Origin: Patescibacteria group bacterium
GTDB taxonomy: Bacteria > Patescibacteriota > Minisyncoccia > UBA6257 > 2-01-FULL-56-20
DNA length: 50,042 nt
NCBI GenBank assembly: GCA_038058095.1
Contig: JBBUBW010000009.1
Span: forward strand, 1 to 50,042
Reading direction: 5' to 3'
How positions within the stretch are numbered: position 1 is the stretch's first letter; each line of letters begins with the position of its first letter. The translations under genes were made by a program, and so were the position numbers. The notes beneath the pieces are model-generated. The model worked only from the letters and a program-made list of their open reading frames with translations, searched no databases and was not told the DNA's origin. This document shows positions 7,514 to 38,699 of this stretch, piece after piece.

Positions 7514-7562
7514 TCTGCTAAACCAAATATAAACTCCCAAAGGTCGGGGAAAATACCTGTCT

Positions 7563-7700
7563 ATGGTAAGCGAACTCAAAAAAATAAGCCTCTCAAACTG
7601 GAACGACGAAGATGAAGAGAATATTGAGCTCGATCTCAATGATGATTCAGAAGAAGAGGAGCTCCTTGGAGAAGAAGGGAGCCCGGAAGAAAGCATATAA
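7563..7700 (+). CDS. 45-aa highly acidic small protein (hypothetical)
   Basis: Translation MVSELKKISLSNWNDEDEENIELDLNDDSEEEELLGEEGSPEESI. It sits between the candidate promoter and a strong terminator. It is below the ORF-track length cutoff, and only its antisense frame is listed there. Confidence 0.35.
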   Translation: MVSELKKISLSNWNDEDEENIELDLNDDSEEEELLGEEGSPEESI

Positions 7701-7730
7701 ACCCTCTCTCGTTGTTGTTTAAGTAGGCTC

Positions 7731-7763
7731 AAAACAAGCCCCGCCTAGGCGGGGCTTGTTTTG
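7731..7763 (+). terminator. rho-independent terminator, potentially bidirectional
   Basis: Sequence AAAACAAGCCCCGCC-TA-GGCGGGGCTTGTTTT. It forms a 10-bp GC-rich stem flanked by an A-run and a T-run. Confidence 0.75.
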
Positions 7764-7794
7764 TAATCACACTTTGATTGATAATTATCTTACT

Positions 7795-10191
7795 ATGACT
7801 CTTTTCAAAAAAATTCTCCTTTTCCTCTTAGTCGGCATTCTTGGATTAATTATTCTAGGCATCCTGTCTTTTCTATACTTCTCAAAAGATTTACCGACTC
7901 CGGACCAAATCATAAATCGCCAAGTTTCTGAATCCACTAAAATTTACGACCGTACCGGCAAAGTTATCCTTTATGAAATCAGCGGGGGTCAAAAAAGAAC
8001 TTCTATCTCATTTGAAGAAATACCCCAGTCCCTCAAAGACGCGACCATCGCAATTGAAGACGAAAAATTTTATCAGGAGCCCGGATTCAGTATTCGAGGC
8101 ATACTCCGCGCTCTTTTGGTAAATCTTTCTAAGGGCAAAATTCTCCAGGGAGGATCAACCATCACTCAGCAACTAGCTCGAAACGCCTTCCTCTCTCCAG
8201 AGCAAACGATTGTTCGAAAAATTAAAGAGTTCCTTTTAGCCATCCAGCTTAATCGCCGCTATTCCAAAGATAAAATTTTAAATCTCTACCTCAACGAAAT
8301 CCCGTATGGGCCGACCATCTACGGCGTTGAGTCGGCCAGCCAAGCCTACTTTAATAAACACTCCAAAGACCTAGCCTTGGCTGAAAGCGCCATTTTGGCA
8401 GCCCTTCCTAAAGCTCCTAGCTACTACTACCCGTGGGGAGCTCATCAAAAAGAACTACTTAATAGAAGTCGCTTGGTATTAAAAAAAATGATGGAGCTGA
8501 AAAAAATTTCGCCGGAAGATTACAAAAAAGCAAACGTTGAAAAAGTTTCATTCGCTCCACAAGAAGAGCGGGGGATTAAAGCCCCTCATTTTGTAATCTC
8601 CATCCAAGACTACTTGGTCCAAAAATACGGAGAAGACTCGGTCCGCTTGGGAGGGCTAAAAGTTATCACTACTCTCGACTGGGAACTCCAGCAAGCCGCA
8701 GAAAAAGCCGTATTAGAAGGAGCAAAACGCAATGAGGAACTATACACTGGAAAAAACGCCGCCTTAATTGCCCAAGATCCGAAAACTGGCCAGATTTTAG
8801 CCATGGTCGGCTCCCGCGATTACTTCGACACCAAAAACGAAGGGAATTTTAACGTCGCCACCCAAGGCCTCCGCCAGCCAGGGTCCGCTCTTAAACCCTT
8901 TGTTTATCTGGCCGCTTTCGAAAAGGGTTACACTCCCGACACGATTCTTTTTGATGTCCCGACTGAGTTTGACTCGACCGGCGATCCGCAAAAAAGTTAC
9001 CATCCCGAAAATTTTGACGGAATATTCCGGGGGCCGGTCAGCCTTCGCCGAGCCCTAGCTCAGTCTATTAACATTCCCGCAGTCAAAACCCTTTACCTAG
9101 TTAGTATTCCTGATGTCCTTGAAGTTTTAAAAAACTTTGGCGTTACCACCCTAAACGATCCTCGTCGCTACGGCCTCTCTTTGGTCTTGGGAGGGGGTGA
9201 AGTCAAGCTTGTTGATATGGTAGGAGCCTATTCGGTTCTTTCTCAAAACGGGATCGAACACCCTCAAACTTCAATCTTGGAAATTAAAGATAATAAAGGA
9301 AATGTTTTAGAATCCTTTAAGGATTCCTCTCGAGAAGTTGTGAGCGCCCAATACCCTCGTCTTATTAACGACGTCCTCTCTGATGTTGACGCGAGATCCG
9401 CGCTCTATAGCAACAGCTTAAACCTAACTCTTGTCTCCGGTCATGATATCGCTCTAAAAACCGGAACTTCAAACGACTACCGCGACGCGTGGGTTTTTGG
9501 CTACACACCCGCTTTCGTCGCTGGTGTTTGGGCCGGCAATAACAATAACGCTCCCATGCAAAAAAAGGGGTCGAGCATCCTCGCCGCCCTCCCGATTTGG
9601 CATGCTTTTATGAGCGAAGCTTTAAAAAATAAACCGCCCGAAGCCTTCTCCCGCCCCGACCCGGTAATCGCTCAAAAACCCATCTTAGCCGGGAATTATT
9701 TAGTCGAAAACCAAATTCATTCCATCCTCTATTACGTCAACCGAAAAAATCCCACCGGCCCCTATCCATCAAATCCAGAATCTGATTCTCAATTCACTAA
9801 CTGGGAGTCAGGAGTTTTGAATTGGGCAAGAACCAACCTTCCTAATTTCTTAGACTTTAATAAACCAGGGAGTACACCTCCTCTTTTTTCTTCGGAGAAT
9901 TTCACTAATACAACCCGGCCCGAAATTACCGTTCAAAAGCCGGCCGTGGGAGAATTTGTGAAAAGCCCTCTCGTTATTCAGGCTGTAATTAAAAGCCCAG
10001 ACACCTTATTGGAAATTAATATTTCTTTAAACGGCGCAACTGTCCAAAAAATTACCCAAAATCTTTCTTCACCTTATTTTCTCAATCTCCAACTCAGCAA
10101 TTTGCAACTCGGAACCCAAAACTCGCTAGAAATCGAAGCTAGGAGTCAAAAGGGCGTATCTAGTAAGGCTGGCGTTATTTTTTACCAATAA
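7795..10191 (+). CDS. penicillin-binding protein 1A family (glycosyltransferase GT51 + transpeptidase)
   Basis: The motifs EDEKFY, GGSTITQQLARN and RKIKE indicate the GT51 domain, and SALKPF and KTGTS indicate the transpeptidase. The ATG at 7795 is preferred because the track start overlaps the terminator. Confidence 0.85.
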   Translation: MTLFKKILLFLLVGILGLIILGILSFLYFSKDLPTPDQIINRQVSESTKIYDRTGKVILYEISGGQKRTSISFEEIPQSLKDATIAIEDEKFYQEPGFSIRGILRALLVNLSKGKILQGGSTITQQLARNAFLSPEQTIVRKIKEFLLAIQLNRRYSKDKILNLYLNEIPYGPTIYGVESASQAYFNKHSKDLALAESAILAALPKAPSYYYPWGAHQKELLNRSRLVLKKMMELKKISPEDYKKANVEKVSFAPQEERGIKAPHFVISIQDYLVQKYGEDSVRLGGLKVITTLDWELQQAAEKAVLEGAKRNEELYTGKNAALIAQDPKTGQILAMVGSRDYFDTKNEGNFNVATQGLRQPGSALKPFVYLAAFEKGYTPDTILFDVPTEFDSTGDPQKSYHPENFDGIFRGPVSLRRALAQSINIPAVKTLYLVSIPDVLEVLKNFGVTTLNDPRRYGLSLVLGGGEVKLVDMVGAYSVLSQNGIEHPQTSILEIKDNKGNVLESFKDSSREVVSAQYPRLINDVLSDVDARSALYSNSLNLTLVSGHDIALKTGTSNDYRDAWVFGYTPAFVAGVWAGNNNNAPMQKKGSSILAALPIWHAFMSEALKNKPPEAFSRPDPVIAQKPILAGNYLVENQIHSILYYVNRKNPTGPYPSNPESDSQFTNWESGVLNWARTNLPNFLDFNKPGSTPPLFSSENFTNTTRPEITVQKPAVGEFVKSPLVIQAVIKSPDTLLEINISLNGATVQKITQNLSSPYFLNLQLSNLQLGTQNSLEIEARSQKGVSSKAGVIFYQ

Positions 10192-34622: not shown

Positions 34623-34651
34623 TTGACATATAACTCTTTATTTGGTAAAAT
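34623..34651 (+). promoter_or_regulatory. sigma70-type promoter TTGACA-17 nt-TAAAAT (target gene 1)
   Basis: Hexamers at 34623-34628 and 34646-34651. The same hexamers and spacing recur at 35732-35760. Confidence 0.6.
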
Positions 34652-34692
34652 ACAAACGTTCTTTGATAATAAAATATTCTAGGTTCTAACTT

Positions 34693-34743
34693 ATGAAACG
34701 AGTATTTAGTGGGTTTTTAGAGTCCATTAAATACTCGTTTCAT
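34693..34743 (+). promoter_or_regulatory. 5' leader hairpin of target gene 1
   Basis: ATGAAACGAGTATTTA...TAAATACTCGTTTCAT forms a perfect 16-bp stem. A homologous stem lies in the leader of target 2. Confidence 0.55.
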
Positions 34744-34804
34744 GAAGAGCGAGCTGCGTCGCGCCAGTTGCGCGATATATTTCAAATACCACAGGAGGTA
34801 TGCG

Positions 34805-35575
34805 ATGGAACCCATCGTGAGCCGTACCCTGTCAGTGCACAACGAGCACGAATTTCTTTTAAAGCTCGAAGCCGCAGGTCTCAACCAAGCACTTTCCCAG
34901 AGAGTCGTTGACTCAAAGGAGAATGATCTCGGCAAGAAAATAGTGAGACTCATCGAGAACGGCGGTTTCGAACCGACGACGAGCCAAAAACGCGCCCGCG
35001 AGATCATGGGGCGCAACATGTTCGGCGTCGAAGAAGCAATCCGGCATTTCGGCGTGAATCCCACGAGGCAACAGGCCGCCGCTCTTTCGGAAATCCCATT
35101 TTCCGAGGCAACCCTCGAGCAGTGCAAGAACACGCACGTTCTCGTTGCGGTCTTCCCCCTCTCGATCCTCGAGATTCGCGGTAAGGTTCCCAGTGACCAG
35201 CATCTGTTTTATGTTCAAGACTGGTACAACAAGGAATCCTTCGCCAAAGACAAAGGGGAACTGGAGTGGCAGCTCATTTGCAAAACTCCCGTCGACAACT
35301 CGACGTCGAGGACGTGGGACGAGCAACAGGCTTTGCTCTCCGACAAAGATCAGACGCCCAAAGCTCGTGTGATGGTCTACGCGATCATCTGCCATTTCCT
35401 CTCGACAGGCGAACGGCTGTTCGAGAAAATCTACGTTCGCTGTTCGGATGTGGATTCGGACGGCCGCCGGGTCCTCGTCGGTCGCTTCGCTTCCGACGGC
35501 TTGCTCGTCAACGACCTCTGGGACGGCCACCGCTACGACAACATCGGCCTCGCCTCTGCCCGGAAGTCCGAGTAG
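34805..35575 (+). CDS. DGR target protein 1 (VR-bearing, no signal peptide)
   Basis: AGGAGG lies 7 nt before the ATG at 34805. The C-terminus ...VDSDGRRVLVGRFASDGLLVNDLWDGHRYDNIGLASARKSE is encoded by VR1. Confidence 0.85.
   Translation: MEPIVSRTLSVHNEHEFLLKLEAAGLNQALSQRVVDSKENDLGKKIVRLIENGGFEPTTSQKRAREIMGRNMFGVEEAIRHFGVNPTRQQAAALSEIPFSEATLEQCKNTHVLVAVFPLSILEIRGKVPSDQHLFYVQDWYNKESFAKDKGELEWQLICKTPVDNSTSRTWDEQQALLSDKDQTPKARVMVYAIICHFLSTGERLFEKIYVRCSDVDSDGRRVLVGRFASDGLLVNDLWDGHRYDNIGLASARKSE
35448..35568 (+). repeat. DGR variable repeat VR1
   Basis: 121 bp that aligns without gaps to the TR. There are 20 mismatches and 15 fall at TR adenines. The 3' 75 bp differ only at adenines. Confidence 0.9.
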
Positions 35576-35587
35576 AACCTTGAAACT

Positions 35588-35604
35588 GGAGGATTTGATC
35601 CTCC
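35588..35604 (+). other. hairpin downstream of VR1 (GGAGGAT-TTG-ATCCTCC)
   Basis: It starts 20 nt after the end of VR/TR homology. The same sequence occurs after VR2. It is absent after the TR. Confidence 0.6.
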
Positions 35605-35614
35605 TCATTACCTT

Positions 35615-35655
35615 GAGCCTCCGCGCGATTTTTTCGCCGGAGGCTCATCTTATTT
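35615..35655 (+). terminator. rho-independent terminator of target gene 1
   Basis: GAGCCTCCG...CGGAGGCTC stem followed by ATCTTATTTTATT. Confidence 0.6.
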
Positions 35656-35731
35656 TATTAACTCGTCAGTAAGAAACTAAAAAGAATATCAGCTAACTTA
35701 GTTATTCCCCTTTTTACAACGAGCCCTAGCA

Positions 35732-35760
35732 TTGACACAGAGCCCATTATTCTGTAAAAT
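35732..35760 (+). promoter_or_regulatory. sigma70-type promoter TTGACA-17 nt-TAAAAT (target gene 2)
   Basis: Hexamers at 35732-35737 and 35755-35760. Confidence 0.6.
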
Positions 35761-35805
35761 ATTTCTGCTCTTTAATAATCAAATATTCGAGATTCTGTCT
35801 ATGGC

Positions 35806-35862
35806 ATGAGGCGAGTGTTTAAAATGTTATAACTCATATAGTTTTTTAAGCACTCGCCTCAT
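35806..35862 (+). promoter_or_regulatory. 5' leader hairpin of target gene 2
   Basis: ATGAGGCGAGTG...CACTCGCCTCAT forms a 12-bp stem. Confidence 0.5.
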
Positions 35863-35922
35863 AAAAAGCGAGTCTGAACCGGACAGATATCCGATAAATT
35901 TCAAATCAGAAGGAGGCACACG

Positions 35923-36735
35923 ATGCCACAAAGCATCGCACACCCCAAACCGACTGCCGTGCTTGACGGGACGGCAAAGTTTTTCCGCGTGATGGCGAAC
36001 GCCGGTGTTCCCTTTTCGGCGTTTACTCCACCAATGCAGAGCGTAGCGAAAAGAGCCAACCTCGCGGAGTTCCTCAAGCTCGGTTGTCCCAAAGTCGACG
36101 GCAATGGCGTTATCAACACAACGCCATCGGAACACGACCTTGCGCGCCTCATTTTAGCCAGCGATTTCATCACGCCGGAAGAAGTGGCGCAAACTCGCGG
36201 ACTCACCTATGCGGATGAGCAACTCGAAGCGTTGCAAACAAGCCTGCCGCCACTCGAAGTGATCACTTGGTGTCGCGGGAACGGTTACTTACTGCTTCCC
36301 AATCCACCCGAGGCAATGTCGCTTCTCGGAGTCCGAGATCTCAACCGAGCCCTCTTTTCTTCAAAGGAAGGCGGGTGGTATGCTGACCAAGCTTTCGCGG
36401 CGAAGGAAACGACTGAGGCCGCAACTTGGCTTATGATCCGCAAGGGCATCGTGCCGAACTCCACGGATAAGAAATGGAAGGAACAAATTCCACTCATCTC
36501 TGACGTTGAACGGGTACCGAATGCCGCCGAGTTCTCCTGGGCGCTCACGATCTACAAAGAAGTCCGGGGCGTCTACCTTATGGGTGGAATCTACGCCCGC
36601 ACTTCAAGTGTGGATTCGGACGGCCTCCGGGTCCGCGTCGGCCACTTCGATTCCGACGGCTTGGACGTCCACAGCTACTGGGACGACCATCGCTATGACG
36701 GCTTCGGTCTCGCCTCCGCTCGGAAGTCCGAGTAG
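35923..36735 (+). CDS. DGR target protein 2 (paralog of target 1)
   Basis: AGGAGG lies before the ATG. The C-terminus ...VDSDGLRVRVGHFDSDGLDVHSYWDDHRYDGFGLASARKSE is encoded by VR2. Confidence 0.85.
   Translation: MPQSIAHPKPTAVLDGTAKFFRVMANAGVPFSAFTPPMQSVAKRANLAEFLKLGCPKVDGNGVINTTPSEHDLARLILASDFITPEEVAQTRGLTYADEQLEALQTSLPPLEVITWCRGNGYLLLPNPPEAMSLLGVRDLNRALFSSKEGGWYADQAFAAKETTEAATWLMIRKGIVPNSTDKKWKEQIPLISDVERVPNAAEFSWALTIYKEVRGVYLMGGIYARTSSVDSDGLRVRVGHFDSDGLDVHSYWDDHRYDGFGLASARKSE
36609..36728 (+). repeat. DGR variable repeat VR2 (more diverged)
   Basis: 23 mismatches to the TR, 14 at TR adenines and 9 elsewhere. Three non-A changes and one adenine-site change fall in the 3' IMH-like segment. 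Confidence 0.8.
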
Positions 36736-36748
36736 AACCTTGAAACCT

Positions 36749-36765
36749 GGAGGATTTGATCCTCC
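36749..36765 (+). other. hairpin downstream of VR2 (GGAGGAT-TTG-ATCCTCC)
   Basis: Identical to the hairpin after VR1. Confidence 0.6.
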
Positions 36766-36775
36766 TCATTACCTT

Positions 36776-36826
36776 GAGCCTCCGGCGCGAATTTTTTTCG
36801 CACACGCCGGGGGCTCTTTCTTTTTA
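36776..36826 (+). terminator. rho-independent terminator of target gene 2
   Basis: GAGCCTCCGGCG...CGCCGGGGGCTC stem followed by TTTCTTTTTAT. Confidence 0.65.
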
Positions 36827-37133
36827 TAAACCTTGTGATATGCTTTTTTTATCTTGCTAATGCAGGCGCGGTTACGGCTTCGCCTCGCGAGATATCTCAC
36901 CTTTGCCTGCCCGCCGAAGTTATCGGCGCAGGCGGGAGATGTCGCCAGAGCGCCACCGTTTACGGATTGCGGCAGAGCGCGATGAAGGATAGAGATGGAC
37001 TTCTTGCTCGCTTCTAGTGGAGATGTCCCGCCAAATCGGGACTGCTCTCGAATAAAATTCAGGAACGAAAGGCAATAGGCTCCTTTTGAGCGGTAACCCT
37101 TAAGTTTCGGTGCCATGGGCGGTAGCGGGCAAT

Positions 37134-37254
37134 ATGTGGATTCGGACGGCAACCATGTCTACGTTGGCAACTTCGATTCTGACGGCTTGAACGTCAACAA
37201 CAACTGGGACGACAACCGCAACGACAACATCGGCCTCGCCTCTGCCCGGAAGTC
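37134..37254 (+). repeat. DGR template repeat (TR)
   Basis: 121 bp with 31 adenines and 9 AAC codons in the VR reading frame (...NHVYVGNFDSDGLNVNNNWDDNRNDNIGLASARKS). No plausible ORF leads into it; a stop lies at 37094-37096 in frame. Confidence 0.9.
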
Positions 37255-37260
37255 ACCCCT

Positions 37261-37650
37261 CTATTCGTTTTTGAATGCCCCGCCAAGCGGGGCATTCTCT
37301 CGTCGGTCTTTCGAGGATTTTATCCAGCCACCCAACATCCGGCCGATCTCATCCACCGGTTCTTCGAGTGAAACGTATTTCTTGTTGTCGATTACCCTGA
37401 CCTCTTTCATTAACCGGAGAAATACTCGCAAAAAGTTTAGCTTGAGACTGACTTTTTCAAGGATCGGCACTTTCTCTGATTTGTAAGTTTGACTCGCAAG
37501 GAGGATGCCTTCAAGGATGTCGAGAATAATATTCTCGCATCGTTGCCAGATGCTGTGGCGATCCTGTTTAGTAATACCATCCCGATAACCATAAAAAGTT
37601 TTATATAAATCATAGGTTTTTTTGAAGATCGGGATATCGAAGTCGTCCAT
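37261..37650 (-). CDS. avd: DGR accessory variability determinant (Avd), four-helix bundle
   Basis: 129 aa. Basic helices and the C-terminal EIGRMLGGWIK compare with phage BPP-1 Avd EVGRILGSWIA (recalled). It lies directly between the TR and the RT. Confidence 0.8.
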   Translation of the reverse strand: MDDFDIPIFKKTYDLYKTFYGYRDGITKQDRHSIWQRCENIILDILEGILLASQTYKSEKVPILEKVSLKLNFLRVFLRLMKEVRVIDNKKYVSLEEPVDEIGRMLGGWIKSSKDRRENAPLGGAFKNE

Positions 37651-37668
37651 TTGTTTTATTATTTATTA

Positions 37669-38568
37669 ATGAAAATTTATAATAATTTATTTGAACAGAT
37701 TACCTCTTTGGAGAATCTTTTTTCTGCGTGGGACGCTTTCAAGTCCGACAAACGGAAAAAACCGGACGTAATGCGGTTTGAATGGCAACTTGAGGAAAAT
37801 ATTTTCAGGTTGCACCGGGAACTCAAAAGTGCCACGTACAGGCATGGCCCGTACTCCGGTTTTTATGTAACCGATCCCAAACAACGCCATATCCATAAAG
37901 CTTTGGTGCGAGATCGGGTTTTGCATCACGCGGTTTTTTCGGTGATCAACCCCATTTTTGAGGAGATGTTTATCCCAACGTCGTTTTCGTGCCGAGTGGG
38001 GTATGGCACTCATCGCGGCGTTGAAGCCCTTGCTGGCATGATGCGCCAAGTGAGTAAAAACAACACGCGGACGTGCCACGTATTGAAGTGCGATGTGAGA
38101 AAGTTTTTTGACAGCGTGGACCACCGGATACTCCTCGGTATTCTTACGAAACGTATTAAAGATGAAAAAGTGATGTGGCTCCTGCGATCTATTGTTGAAA
38201 GCTATTCGAGTGAAATAGGGAGTGGAAAAGGGATTCCGATAGGGAATTTGACCTCCCAGCTTTTTGCCAATATCTACATGAATGAGTTCGATAGGTATAT
38301 GAAACATATGGTGAAGGCAAAACACTATCTGCGATACACCGATGACTTTGCGATTGTTTCTGAAAACCGAACTTATTTAGAGGAACTACTGCCTAAGATC
38401 AAAGAATTTCTTTCAAACAACCTGGCAATCAATCTACACCCCAATAAAATCATACTTTCGACCTTCTGTCAAGGCGTAGATTTTCTTGGTTACGTTTCTT
38501 TTCCTCAATACCGACTCCTCCGTACAAAAACAAGGTGGAGAATTTTTTCGAGACTGCGAAAAAACTAA
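37669..38568 (+). CDS. DGR-type reverse transcriptase (C-terminus apparently interrupted)
   Basis: RT motifs LKCDVRKFFDSVDH, GIPIGNLTSQLFANIYMNEFD (DGR-specific [ILV]GxxxSQ) and YLRYTDDFAIV. The ORF ends at a TAA right after an A AAA AAC run. Confidence 0.9.
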   Translation: MKIYNNLFEQITSLENLFSAWDAFKSDKRKKPDVMRFEWQLEENIFRLHRELKSATYRHGPYSGFYVTDPKQRHIHKALVRDRVLHHAVFSVINPIFEEMFIPTSFSCRVGYGTHRGVEALAGMMRQVSKNNTRTCHVLKCDVRKFFDSVDHRILLGILTKRIKDEKVMWLLRSIVESYSSEIGSGKGIPIGNLTSQLFANIYMNEFDRYMKHMVKAKHYLRYTDDFAIVSENRTYLEELLPKIKEFLSNNLAINLHPNKIILSTFCQGVDFLGYVSFPQYRLLRTKTRWRIFSRLRKN

Positions 38569-38570
38569 AA

Positions 38571-38699
38571 AGTTACCGCGGTGAATTGATTTCAAGAACT
38601 TCTCTCGAGTAATCCCTGCAGTCCTATCTCGGCGTTCTTTCTCACGGCAATACTTTCAAATTACGCGAGAGTATTCTTAATGAATTCTGGTTTAGTTGA
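38571..38699 (+). pseudogene. out-of-frame remnant of the RT C-terminus
   Basis: The -1 frame reads SYRGELISRTSLE*SLQSYLGVLSHGNTFKLRESILNEFWFS*. As far as I recall, it resembles the conserved C-terminal tail of DGR RTs. Confidence 0.5.

Follow-up and report, generated by a model that had tools for sequence, protein, structure and literature searches.

A chromosomal diversity-generating retroelement of a Patescibacteria lineage with two paralogous target genes and a probably crippled reverse transcriptase

The prototype diversity-generating retroelement (DGR), that of Bordetella phage BPP-1, has the order mtd-avd-TR-brt, with a reverse transcriptase (RT) carrying the motif IGxLTSQ, the protein Avd and a template repeat (TR) of roughly 120-134 nt. 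Its variable region (VR) is formed by the last codons of the target gene; the template is rich in AAC and shares a GC-rich 3' end with the VR, an inverted repeat follows the VR, and a stem-loop lies shortly after the TR. All of these features, including a related RT, are also seen at 34623-38699 of the window, by which is meant the whole 50,042-nt stretch of Patescibacteria DNA analyzed here, but in a different arrangement: avd is inverted and lies between TR and RT, and there is no room after the TR for the 140-nt spacer RNA of BPP-1, antisense avd being found there, while a structured domain of about 280 nt precedes the TR instead. The segment just upstream of the TR, which in BPP-1 pairs with the downstream spacer, pairs here within that 5' domain (helix 5). 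The window element is furthermore chromosomal, with a truncated RT and two targets that have no sequence similarity to Mtd. In host group, groundwater source and gene order it resembles the DGRs of CPR/Patescibacteria ("clade 2" of Roux et al. 2021), and nothing points to a place outside that group; the TR-(avd)-RT order matches the published layout of Patescibacteria DGRs and is architecture B3 of Wu et al. 2018 (PMC5758913), in which B3 DGRs are listed with unclassified "UVR" variable regions. In multicellular bacteria, DGRs of clade 5 diversify putative cytoplasmic sensors (Doré et al. 2024, PMC10907252); they too have several targets per element and a lectin-like diversified C-terminus predicted to be intracellular. 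Their targets, however, are large and multidomain (STAND NTPase, MoxR-associated) and lie in conflict-system neighborhoods, whereas the window family consists of free-standing proteins, 200-280 aa long, that lack both an effector domain and conserved neighbors; the RT clade differs as well.

The region is read here, with a probability of about 0.85 and from sequence, as a chromosomal DGR of a Patescibacteria-specific lineage, arranged TR-(avd)-RT with two paralogous targets upstream, whose own copy is likely to be inactive or crippled. It is a real DGR, of a type already catalogued in ultra-small groundwater bacteria. The original prediction, made from the letters alone, had called a DGR rightly on RT clade, signature motif, Avd, adenine bias and the position of the VR at the 3' end of two paralogues; it erred in calling the element "complete", since the C-terminal 44 residues conserved in the clade are missing from the RT ORF and lie out of frame with a stop codon inside. 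New here are the structured RNA of about 280 nt, the leader hairpin before each target gene and the target family, which has about 3,600 clusters and no Pfam model. No prior description of the 5' RNA domain, the leader hairpin or the RT tract variation was found in the literature covered, which did not include Paul et al. 2017, reportedly a study of CPR/Patescibacteria DGRs.

The RT ORF (37669-38568, + strand, 299 aa; RVT_1 3.6e-23) contains both motifs originally read in it, IGNLTSQ and YTDD, the former agreeing with the DGR RT signature [I/V/L]GxxxSQ (PMC7826257). Its best match among solved structures is 8ub7 (328-aa chain, E 7e-49), with group II intron RTs at 2e-20, and its identity with Brt of BPP-1 is 34% (E 1e-58), IGNLTSQLFAN aligning to IGSLTSQLFAN. 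The 129-aa Avd proposed at 37261-37650 (- strand) was borne out and is intact: it matches NCBIfam NF033474 DivGenRetAVD (80.4 bits, cutoff 80), Pfam bAvd (2.8e-16) and BPP-1 Bbp7 (BLASTP, E 2e-5), and NCBI names the product "diversity-generating retroelement protein Avd". It stands head to head with the RT gene, 18 nt from the RT start codon. Almost every related locus that has both genes shows this head-to-head placing and has the TR next to where avd ends, on the strand of the RT gene; the sole exception is found in one of them, L018, in a second avd-RT pair that is far more divergent. The source records of homologues name them Patescibacteria, Parcubacteria and similar.

The TR was confirmed at 37134-37254 (+ strand). 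Of its 121 nt, 31 are A, and nine AAC codons are in frame; in relatives it is invariably found next to the 3' end of avd, on the strand that carries the RT gene. As had been noted, the 3' ends of both target genes align to it without gaps, giving three copies of about 121 nt. VR1 (35448-35568, +) differs from the TR at 20 sites, 15 of them TR adenines (binomial P 5e-6), and VR2 (36608-36728, +, its start moved from 36609) at 24, again 15 at adenines (P 1.5e-4). The adenine bias is present in the computed alignment, and the claim that the differences fall mainly at TR adenines holds for the majority of them, but the remaining mismatches are not negligible. In the 3' 74 nt of VR1 all eight mismatches are at A. 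Four non-adenine mismatches are common to both VRs (TR 37156, 37160, 37165 and 37180); point changes in the TR, instead of long disuse, are a possible cause of these. VR2, probably an older or imported copy, has five further transitions, each of which is silent or occupies the third position of a codon recoded at its adenines; three of the five lie in the GC-rich 3' end. In related loci, where about 48 TR/VR pairs were compared, 79% of the mismatches fall on an A, a figure that takes in some few mispaired cases and 4 nt of flank. The extra non-adenine drift of the window VRs is consistent with a copy that has gone without recent rewriting. Target 2 differs from its sister allele by 6.6% outside the VR, so that recombination, besides time since the last homing, adds to the VR2 mismatches.

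From the sequences compared, the lineage itself is active: both VRs have been rewritten among sister strains, while the TR is 100% identical in three of these (L001, L085 and L086). The VR2 copies of L085 and L086 differ from the TR at adenines only (21 of 21 mismatches). VR1 differs between the window and L086 at 15 sites. Fourteen of these are TR-A, and the fifteenth has the base that the TR has today; over the other 643 nt of the target 1 gene the two are 100% identical. L086 has a 343-aa RT and an intact Avd.

Two changes end the RT of the window about 44 codons too soon. A run that is A7 in sister strains has lost 1 nt (A6 at 38559-38564 here), and there is a nonsense change, GAACAA>GAGTAA, in which substitutions at 38609-38610 create a TAA at 38610-38612. 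The ORF ends AAC TAA within the shortened A-run; a five-way alignment places the lesions and the out-of-frame 3' remnant at 38559-38699 (+ strand), the missing segment itself being present out of frame, with a stop codon, at 38567-38699. The remnant frame translates as ...KLKSYRGELISRTSLE, stop, SLQSYLGVLSHGNTFKLRESILNEFWFS, stop, ending at 38699. The two lesions are independent and are reproduced in four contigs; the 299-aa form is found on 4 contigs and a 343-aa form is read on 5, and three sister assemblies retain the 343-aa RT. Among 39 related RTs, 38 run some 40-65 aa past the end of the window RT, via a conserved ..SLQSYLGVLSHxNT..L...LKNQFWFW, and the one exception has its own early stop. 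The 299-aa protein keeps all palm and finger motifs (the alignment covers Brt residues 4-276 of 328), and what it has lost is part of the thumb. Because a frameshift and a nonsense change have removed these 44 conserved residues, the window copy is most likely inactive or crippled at present, with its VRs frozen.

One could suppose instead that it is fully functional, either because the 299-aa RT suffices or because a -1 slip on A_AAA_AAC, or switching of the A-run length, restores the long form often enough. A classical slippery heptamer does lie directly before the RT stop (A AAA AAC TAA), variation in run length (A6/A7) among sister strains is typical of slipped-strand switching, and in the window nothing is broken in avd, in the TR or in any RNA part; in relatives, moreover, a (GA)n tract in the RT gene is seen in both in-frame and out-of-frame states, so that on/off switching of the RT may be a habit of the clade. 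After a -1 shift, however, the remnant frame meets the TAA at 38610-38612 ahead of the SLQSYLGVLSH motif, and frameshifting by itself therefore cannot restore the protein; the retention of the C-terminal segment in frame in 38 of 39 relatives argues that it is needed, and the non-adenine drift of the window VRs is absent from the VR2 of sister strains. Full function is thus improbable, and a disabled copy within an active lineage is the preferred reading.

The TR is abutted at its 5' end by a structured RNA domain of nine helices (36851-37133, + strand; putative bounds). RNAalifold on 26 loci gives 61 pairs, 44 of them with compensatory changes; 97.4% of cells are paired, against 40-50% with the partners slid, and none of 500 shuffles reaches the observed values. 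The domain occurs once per DGR locus by nhmmer, and once in the window, and in the 39 full-scoring matches with a mapped TR it ends -7 to +2 nt from the TR start. Helix 5 pairs 37004-37015 with 37121-37132, the last 12 nt before the TR, and a lineage-specific inserted hairpin is found at 36905-36935; the domain has no Rfam match. Its position suggests a role in reverse transcription. It is very improbable that this block is an independent small RNA, or a protein gene of the opposite strand, lying outside the DGR RNA: minus-strand ORFs do overlap it (127 aa, 36769-37152, in the window; 160-aa gene calls in L085 and L086), but in 41 loci no reading frame is open across it (of about 82 codons, the longest stop-free stretch has a median of 49-56), the compensated pairs are accompanied by many G.U pairs on the + strand, and both the end within 7 nt of the TR and the use of the adjoining 12 nt by helix 5 tie it to the template.

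The DGR RNA would thus include the domain, and a putative extended -10-like box, TGATATGCT (36836-36844, + strand), lies before it; this aligns with TGCTATAAT / TGCTATACT in relatives, where it stands 6-8 nt before the conserved ATCTTGCTAATG that starts the domain. The box has no -35 hexamer and was not reported by a promoter consensus scan. On the other side, 19 nt after the TR, is a stem-loop, GAATGCCCCG-CCAAG-CGGGGCATTC (37273-37297, + strand), antisense to the last 12 avd codons; all seven modeled pairs show compensatory changes (39 loci), and a T-rich tail follows 3' on the + strand. It matches, in position and size, the "Avd-binding stem-loops just downstream of TR" that were described in 207 of 278 DGRs of the Avd type (bioRxiv 10.1101/2023.10.23.563531), and it may bind Avd and serve in termination. 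For intact lineages we infer the following working: a non-coding RNA of about 450 nt would begin at about 36851, downstream of the extended -10 box, and comprise the nine-helix 5' domain, the 121-nt TR, a short linker and the stem-loop; an RT-Avd complex would copy the TR into cDNA, with misincorporation opposite adenines; and the cDNA would replace the VR -- the last 40 or so codons -- of either target gene, guided by the GC-rich 3' end that VR and TR share and by the hairpin that follows each VR. The outcome would be the recoding of about 12 positions on a small soluble protein.

Target gene 1 (34805-35575, + strand) encodes a 256-aa protein of the T1 type of this Patescibacteria DGR-target family, and NCBI record MEK7180859.1 is the same product; a start at 34742 is less likely than the ATG at 34805, which is preceded by AGGAGG. 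Target gene 2 (35923-36735, + strand) encodes a 270-aa T2-type paralogue, 35-37% identical to the first, and the order T1 then T2 recurs in five related loci (L007, L029, L033, L041 and L047). More than 1,100 homologues of target 1 at about 70% identity include none with a Pfam domain, and its variation is limited to VR positions. Searched by sequence, neither the targets nor any of 148 family members had a match in Pfam, NCBIfam or PDB. Both ORFs end ...W..R.D..GLASARKSE, much as originally read, and a likeness to CLec-fold variable regions had been noted for this C-terminus. In favor of such a fold, the VR lies at the extreme C-terminus, as in the FGE-sulfatase/C-type-lectin-fold variable domains of the Mtd and TvpA class, and the ...G(L/V)(A/S)SARK strand of the family resembles their ...GFRxAR; the targets, however, have no profile, sequence or significant structural match to that class. 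The hhalign probability against Mtd is 0.2%. An AlphaFold2 model of target 2 (mean pLDDT 91.0, pTM 0.80) has the predicted order strand-helix-helix-four strands, a further likeness to that class; Foldseek found no significant match to it (best E 0.19; TM-scores 0.13-0.29, normalized to the whole 270-aa query), and the weak list consists mostly of FGE-like lectin-fold enzymes, being enriched in FGE, EgtB, SenA and OvsA. The CLec fold is a plausible candidate for this C-terminus.

The description of the targets as "cytoplasmic-looking", with no signal peptide or TM segment, was fair: neither has a signal-like N-terminus, and the maximum Kyte-Doolittle 19-residue means are 1.30 and 0.74. It is not new, having been reported for the clade as an open question. 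CPR/Patescibacteria DGR targets share the lack of TM segments, signal peptides and recognizable domains and a VR of unknown fold class; Roux et al. 2021 (PMC8144416) found clade-2 targets typically without TM or other domains and, on the question of their being genuinely non-membrane, wrote that this "remains to be established", and cytoplasmic targets have been proposed in other clades too (PMC10907252). One possibility, a rather doubtful one, is that the proteins reach the cell surface or a host cell by a signal-less route and serve attachment of the episymbiont, the role first suggested for CPR DGRs. Localization was judged here solely by hydropathy scan, and signal prediction is poorly calibrated for Patescibacteria. 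Elsewhere, most cellular DGR targets are membrane-anchored binders (PMC8144416), and a role of CPR/DPANN DGRs in host-cell interaction was proposed in a CPR survey, as cited by Doré et al. (PMC10907252). Against export stand the want of a hydrophobic stretch or signal-like N-terminus in either paralogue, the dispensability of the N-terminal 60 residues (many family members begin at the core of about 200 aa), and the absence of conserved secretion genes next to the family, none of five tested window flanking genes recurring beside it in 79 loci. A location inside the cell is itself a prediction.

Each target gene is surrounded by similar signals. Target 1 is preceded by a promoter-like site (34623-34651, + strand; TTGACA-17-TAAAAT, with TG before the -10 hexamer) and target 2 by another (35732-35760, + strand; TTGACA-17-TAAAAT), each with 11 of 12 consensus matches and a putative function; similar hexamers are seen by eye upstream of homologous genes in related loci. 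VR1 is followed by the hairpin GGAGGAT-TTG-ATCCTCC (35588-35604, + strand), part of a direct repeat (D2) common to target 2, and by a GC-rich stem, GAGCCTCCG...CGGAGGCTC, with a T-rich tail (35615-35646, + strand), the post-VR1 elements together spanning 35588-35646. After VR2, the second D2 copy, 98% identical to the first, holds a hairpin (36749-36765) and a terminator-like stem (36749-36815 in all, + strand). A CTTGA-flanked hairpin and terminator-like stem follow nearly every homologous target gene (79 loci; stem changes by eye). The post-VR1 hairpin has the position of the BPP-1 inverted repeat downstream of the IMH (PMC5758913), and by that analogy may act in homing. In the 5' UTRs lie leader hairpin 1 (ATGAAACGAGTATTTAGTGG ... 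CCATTAAATACTCGTTTCAT; 34693-34743, + strand, inverted repeat I3) and leader hairpin 2 (35806-35862, + strand, inverted repeat I1). They have no Rfam match; with 23 leaders aligned, RNAalifold predicts 21 pairs, of which 12 show compensatory changes, conserved G.U pairs included. A covariance model (R1) gives + strand scores of 64.3 bits (hairpin 1) and 63.2 bits (hairpin 2), with 44.1 and 49.2 bits respectively on the - strand, and these two sites are its only matches in the 50-kb window.

The original prediction of a diversity-generating retroelement (DGR) at this locus was right, and the observations behind it are real: the reverse transcriptase (RT) motif, Avd and the adenine bias between template and variable regions. 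The sole direct-repeat family returned by a repeat finder has three members, at 35428, 36588 and 37114, and in a MAFFT alignment the template and the two variable regions (VR1 and VR2) are collinear and gapless over ~121 nt. The template (TR) lies at 37134-37254; it has 31 A among its 121 bases (26%) and, read in the VR frame, contains the nine AAC codons counted previously. VR1 (35448-35568) shows 20 mismatches to it, 15 of them at TR adenines (binomial P 5e-6), while VR2 (36608-36728) shows 24, again with 15 at TR adenines (binomial P 1.5e-4); the predicted adenine bias thus holds in a computed alignment. The two VRs form the final ~40 codons of ORFs with a ...GLASARKSE terminus, and a GC-rich 3' end, GGCCTCGCCTCTGCCCGGAAGTC, a candidate IMH-like element, is common to the TR and VR1. 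A hairpin, GGAGGAT-TTG-ATCCTCC, is found downstream of both VR1 and VR2, with none after the TR. This short hairpin is CTTGA-flanked and is followed, at each VR, by a terminator-like stem; these elements occupy the place of the inverted repeat of Bordetella phage BPP-1, the prototype DGR, which promotes homing there (PMC5758913).

The RT, an RVT_1 protein, is encoded at 37669-38568. Among solved structures it matches 8ub7 best (E 7e-49), a 328-aa chain of the same length as Brt, the BPP-1 RT, with group II intron RTs at 2e-20; compared directly with Brt from the BPP-1 genome record, it shows 34% identity across 287 residues (E 1e-58). Its IGNLTSQLFAN aligns with IGSLTSQLFAN of Brt and its YTDD with YMDD; [I/V/L]GxxxSQ, standing in place of QGxxxSP, is the signature motif of DGR RTs (PMC7826257). 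By this motif and its best matches, the RT can be assigned to the DGR lineage. The 129-aa product of avd, on the minus strand at 37261-37650, passes the NCBI curated DGR-Avd model NF033474 (80.4 bits, cutoff 80) and matches Pfam bAvd PF22296 (E 2.8e-16). The two genes are divergent, with start codons only 18 nt apart (37651-37668), so that the promoter of each must sit within the other gene, or else the RT is expressed from a TR transcript that continues across avd in antisense.

For comparison, 79 loci encoding a target homologue were taken from species-representative genomes, and RT, Avd, targets and TR were located in each. The window itself comes from Hainich groundwater (its contig has NCBI locus tags AAB738_008xx), and homologues of both targets belong almost entirely to metagenome-assembled genomes of Patescibacteria; assignment to a Patescibacteria host is supported by how the contig and its relatives are named in their records. 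RT and Avd of this type are head to head wherever both are present (~40 loci), mostly 0-20 nt apart and at most ~105 nt in the most divergent, and in every such locus with a located TR it lies a few tens of nt past the avd stop, on the RT strand. Across about 40 related loci the TR-avd-RT module may face the same way as the target gene or the opposite way. The layout is architecture B3, TR-(avd)-RT, of Wu et al. 2018 (PMC5758913), with TR and RT on one strand and avd between them on the other. Wu et al. left the variable regions of CPR DGRs in unclassified "UVR" classes of unknown fold, and Roux et al. 2021 (PMC8144416) placed most Patescibacteria DGRs in their clade 2. The locus probably belongs to this known clade, has a layout already in print, and as a DGR adds little, since clade, gene order and targets without export signals have all been described and NCBI had already named the Avd; what it adds is its RNA architecture, a series of intact and broken strains, and a model of a very widespread unannotated target family. 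A second avd-RT pair is present in one related locus (L018:1791-3093), collinear, upstream of the same target gene and with 27-34% identity to the window proteins. In ~35 of the 79 loci the target is present with no RT nearby.

The system had been described as complete, which is not borne out: through an A6-for-A7 deletion and a nonsense change, the window RT has lost its conserved C-terminus. Of 39 related loci, 38 have an RT frame that runs ~40-65 residues (mostly ~48) past the window stop, through a strongly conserved segment, ..LEQSLQSYLGVLSHANTY.L...LKNQFWFW. The window retains this segment at 38567-38699, but interrupted and in another frame, and its RT ends 44 codons short of the sister-strain end. 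In a five-way alignment the first lesion is a run of A6 at 38559-38564, found both in the window and in an independent H43 contig; the run is A7 in three further assemblies of this organism, two of them from H41 samples and one from an unrelated run. The second lesion is GAGTAA in the window type in place of GAACAA elsewhere, which puts a stop in the remnant frame. The 299-aa form is found on four contigs and the 343-aa form was read on five. Since there are two lesions, each in more than one assembly, an assembly error is excluded as the cause, and so is a simple programmed frameshift; a programmed -1 frameshift fails as a full rescue of the RT because the second lesion is a stop codon. The missing part is the end of the thumb (Brt residues past 276 of 328 are unmatched). 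The window thus has no full-length, potentially active RT, and we infer that the truncated enzyme is inactive or crippled.

Two sister-strain loci, L085 and L086, share ~98% identity with the window across 5 kb, with no difference in the TR or in the RNA domain upstream of it. All 21 mismatches between their VR2 and the TR fall at adenines. Between the window and L086, target 1 has no differences in the 643 nt outside the VR, while VR1 differs at 15 sites, 14 of them at TR adenines; at the fifteenth (37160), L086 carries the present TR base. Judged from these sequences, the DGR lineage appears to be active: adenine-specific change in the VR is seen between assemblies of the sister strains, while four assemblies of the window strain share the same VR1 but for one change at an adenine site. 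Four non-adenine mismatches, at TR positions 37156, 37160, 37165 and 37180, are common to VR1 and VR2 of the window, and it is here that the TR itself is unusual, with CAT, TAC, GTT and TCT where related TRs have a consensus of CGN, AAC, GTC and TCC. The simplest reading is that the window VR segments with the four shared mismatches were written before those TR changes and the VR2 of the sisters after them; on the same simplest reading, no VR rewriting would have taken place in the window strain since the TR changed at the four shared sites.

L086 encodes a 343-aa RT plus an intact Avd. L085 (an H41_R3 contig, avd at 7519-7908) combines a full-length RT with an avd altered by a W35-to-stop change and by R103W. 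With the RT truncation of the window, three states of the DGR thus coexist in one aquifer, and these near-identical strains -- intact RT, broken RT, avd nonsense -- form a natural series in which to ask whether VR diversity tracks RT integrity. Not all of the variation is of DGR type. Outside the VR, the window and sister alleles of target 2 diverge by 6.6%, while no window/sister difference is seen in target 1 or its leader, nor in the TR or the 5' RNA domain, and the other flanking segments show 1.4% or less. Divergence beyond the VR implies that recombination or allele replacement is involved besides DGR rewriting, and suggests replacement of the target-2 allele by recombination on top of such rewriting. 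Against L085, divergence amounts to 6.6-22% over target 2 plus the adjoining 3' flank (window 35923-36850), in strains otherwise 99-100% identical. A run of 10 N lies within VR1 of the assembly with the intact DGR (L086:2875-2884); population heterogeneity in a hypervariable stretch tends to produce such a run as a typical assembler outcome.

Between the target-2 terminator and the TR lies a block of ~280 nt (36851-37133) that is kept in every DGR locus of the same type. RNAalifold, applied to 26 loci, gives it nine helices with 61 pairs, 44 of them with compensatory changes. In an independent count, 97.4% of alignment cells were paired, as against 40-50% when the partners were slid by 1-3 columns, and none of 500 shuffles reached the observed values. 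By nhmmer the domain occurs once per DGR locus and once in the window, and in the 39 matches that exceed 120 bits and have a mapped TR, its end falls between -7 and +2 nt of the TR start. An extended -10-like box precedes it; the window sequence of this box is TGATATGCT, that of relatives TGCTATAAT. A protein encoded there on the minus strand was ruled out, as no reading frame is kept open over the domain. Rfam held no family for this domain, the leader hairpin or the post-TR hairpin, either at the gathering threshold or at E up to 1. Partial copies of the domain (50-125 nt) are found just downstream of "orphan" targets with no RT or Avd within 6 kb, at L025:6868-6992, L027:6911-7031, L045:6884-6933, L057:4910-5005 and L081:5529-5592; they look like remnants of decayed cassettes. 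The window also carries a ~31-nt GC-rich hairpin insertion, GCCTGCCCGCCGAAGTTATCGGCGCAGGCGG, inside the domain at 36905-36935, common to L009 only among the aligned loci, and L079 has a different insertion further along.

The arrangement differs from that of BPP-1, in which a segment just upstream of the TR pairs with the downstream spacer to form a duplex that stops reverse transcription (bioRxiv 10.1101/2023.10.23.563531). Here the upstream flank of the TR pairs inside the 5' domain instead: helix 5 joins 37004-37015 to 37121-37132, the 12 nt immediately 5' of the TR. No stop duplex of the BPP-1 type, between the upstream and downstream flanks of the TR, was found by RNAalifold across 39 loci, and on that ground it is proposed, as a matter of inference, that this Patescibacteria lineage may supply the spacer functions from the 5' side. 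A pairing noticed by eye between GGACTTC at 36997-37003 and GAAGTC at the TR 3' end was dropped, as it shows no co-variation in relatives. The conserved domain provides a second, differently arranged RNA scaffold to set beside the Bordetella ribonucleoprotein. On the other side of the TR, 19 nt after its end, a 10-bp stem-loop is found at 37273-37297, with compensatory changes at all 7 modelled pairs. It matches the class of predicted "Avd-binding stem-loop just downstream of TR" reported in 207 of 278 Avd-type DGRs, CPR included (bioRxiv 10.1101/2023.10.23.563531). As it is antisense to the final 12 avd codons and a T-rich stretch follows, it may also terminate the TR transcript, which is predicted to begin near 36851 and to finish near 37305.

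The target genes have an RNA element of their own. Each is preceded by a promoter-like site agreeing at 11 of 12 consensus positions, and between this and the ribosome-binding site lies a leader hairpin of ~55 nt with conserved arms, AUGAGACGAGY...RCUCGUCUCAU; compensatory changes affect 12 of its 21 pairs, and there are some conserved G.U pairs. Across the 79 loci a covariance model finds ~60 such sites before target genes, some of these genes lacking a nearby RT; in the 50-kb window it matches the two target leaders and nothing else. The plus strand outscores the minus strand by 7-31 bits in 60 of 61 sites. The element is most likely a cis-regulatory RNA. The sole Rfam match at gathering threshold in the 50-kb window is a tRNA gene at 22-93 on the minus strand.

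A further feature is seen in the RT genes of relatives. In 14 of the ~40 (L003, L033, L042, L046, L056, L065, L066, L068, L075, L077, L079, L080, L082 and L083), a (GA)n tract with n from 4 to 21 lies at the same place, around nt 550 of the gene and 10-15 codons before the GIPIGNLTSQ motif (e.g. L077:7990-8030). The two halves of the RT are in different frames in most of these loci, and the gene is continuous in L056, L068 and L075. The tract is absent from the window, where the equivalent stretch, ~38206-38232, reads SSEIGSGKG. From its sequence it looks like a slipped-strand on/off switch on the DGR mutator, or a site of programmed slippage. Among the ten top-ranked of 1,888 papers matched on this subject there was no DGR paper, and an earlier description is possible.

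A single tentative reading, put at a probability of about 0.35, would bring these elements together: a TR RNA permuted relative to that of BPP-1, a regulatory layer in the leaders of the target mRNAs, a repeat-tract switch in the RT, and a window strain that is "off" or dead. Helix 5 of the 5' domain would supply the duplex that clamps the 5' boundary of the TR, and the domain would presumably also provide RT-Avd binding and priming, as the downstream spacer does in BPP-1. The system may comprise two more layers, namely the structured leader on every target mRNA and the repeat tracts -- (GA)n in the RT genes of relatives, the A-run in that of the window -- which would switch the mutator on and off. 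The window would then represent a natural "off" or dead state beside active sister strains from the same aquifer.

For target 1 the likeliest start is ATG 34805, which is preceded by AGGAGG, and NCBI calls the same 256-aa product; target 2 (35923-36735) has 270 aa, and the two proteins are 35-37% identical. With clusters at 50% identity, a profile search recovers 3,600 representatives under an E-value cutoff of 0.001, of which 944 remain when the cutoff is tightened to 1e-30. Almost all members have 200-290 aa, with a ~200-aa core and a variable N-terminal ~60 residues; the body is well conserved in alignments, and variation is concentrated in the VR codons matching TR adenines. Neither target nor any of 148 family members matches Pfam at E up to 1 (FGE-sulfatase, DUF1566 and Mtd-like profiles included), the targets have no match by NCBIfam or by single-sequence or profile search of PDB sequences, and hhalign of the target against Mtd, the BPP-1 target, gives a probability of 0.2%. 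A first AlphaFold2 model, of target 1 with 41 close homologues, was discarded (pLDDT 40.7). That of target 2, built on a 148-sequence alignment mixing both subfamilies, has pLDDT 91 and pTM 0.80. Its N-terminal half is helical; the C-terminal half consists of a strand (169-173), two helices (185-191 and 201-215) and four strands (224-230, 236-243, 246-251 and 261-263), the VR spanning these last four. In the model this order of elements agrees with a C-type-lectin-like (CLec) fold, as had been proposed from the VR peptide, while sequence and profile searches gave no match and Foldseek with the whole model found nothing significant in the PDB or BFVD (best PDB E 0.19). The weak Foldseek list is dominated by FGE, pFGE, EgtB, SenA and OvsA, at probabilities of 0.1-0.5. 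A CLec fold is a likely candidate for the VR domain. A very large unannotated family of small soluble proteins (~3,600 clusters) now has a confident model, which bears on what CPR DGRs diversify.

The targets had also been called cytoplasmic-looking. A hydropathy scan of the two window proteins, a crude test, found no hydrophobic segment or signal-like N-terminus (maxima of 1.30 and 0.74 over 19 residues), and to that extent the description stands. As a feature it had already been published: Roux et al. 2021 (PMC8144416) state that clade-2 targets are typically without TM or other recognisable domains and that their genuine non-membrane status "remains to be established", so that lack of export signals is a known, still open property of the clade and not a new one. 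The simplest reading of the sequences is that the target is a soluble binding protein acting inside the cell; its main rival is export by an unrecognised, non-classical route. None of the five window flanking genes tested was found beside the target family elsewhere. The region of the targets and TR (35001-37000) has 51-56% G+C, as against ~42% in the rest of the window, RT and avd included; this could reflect either a horizontal origin or composition constraints of the family.
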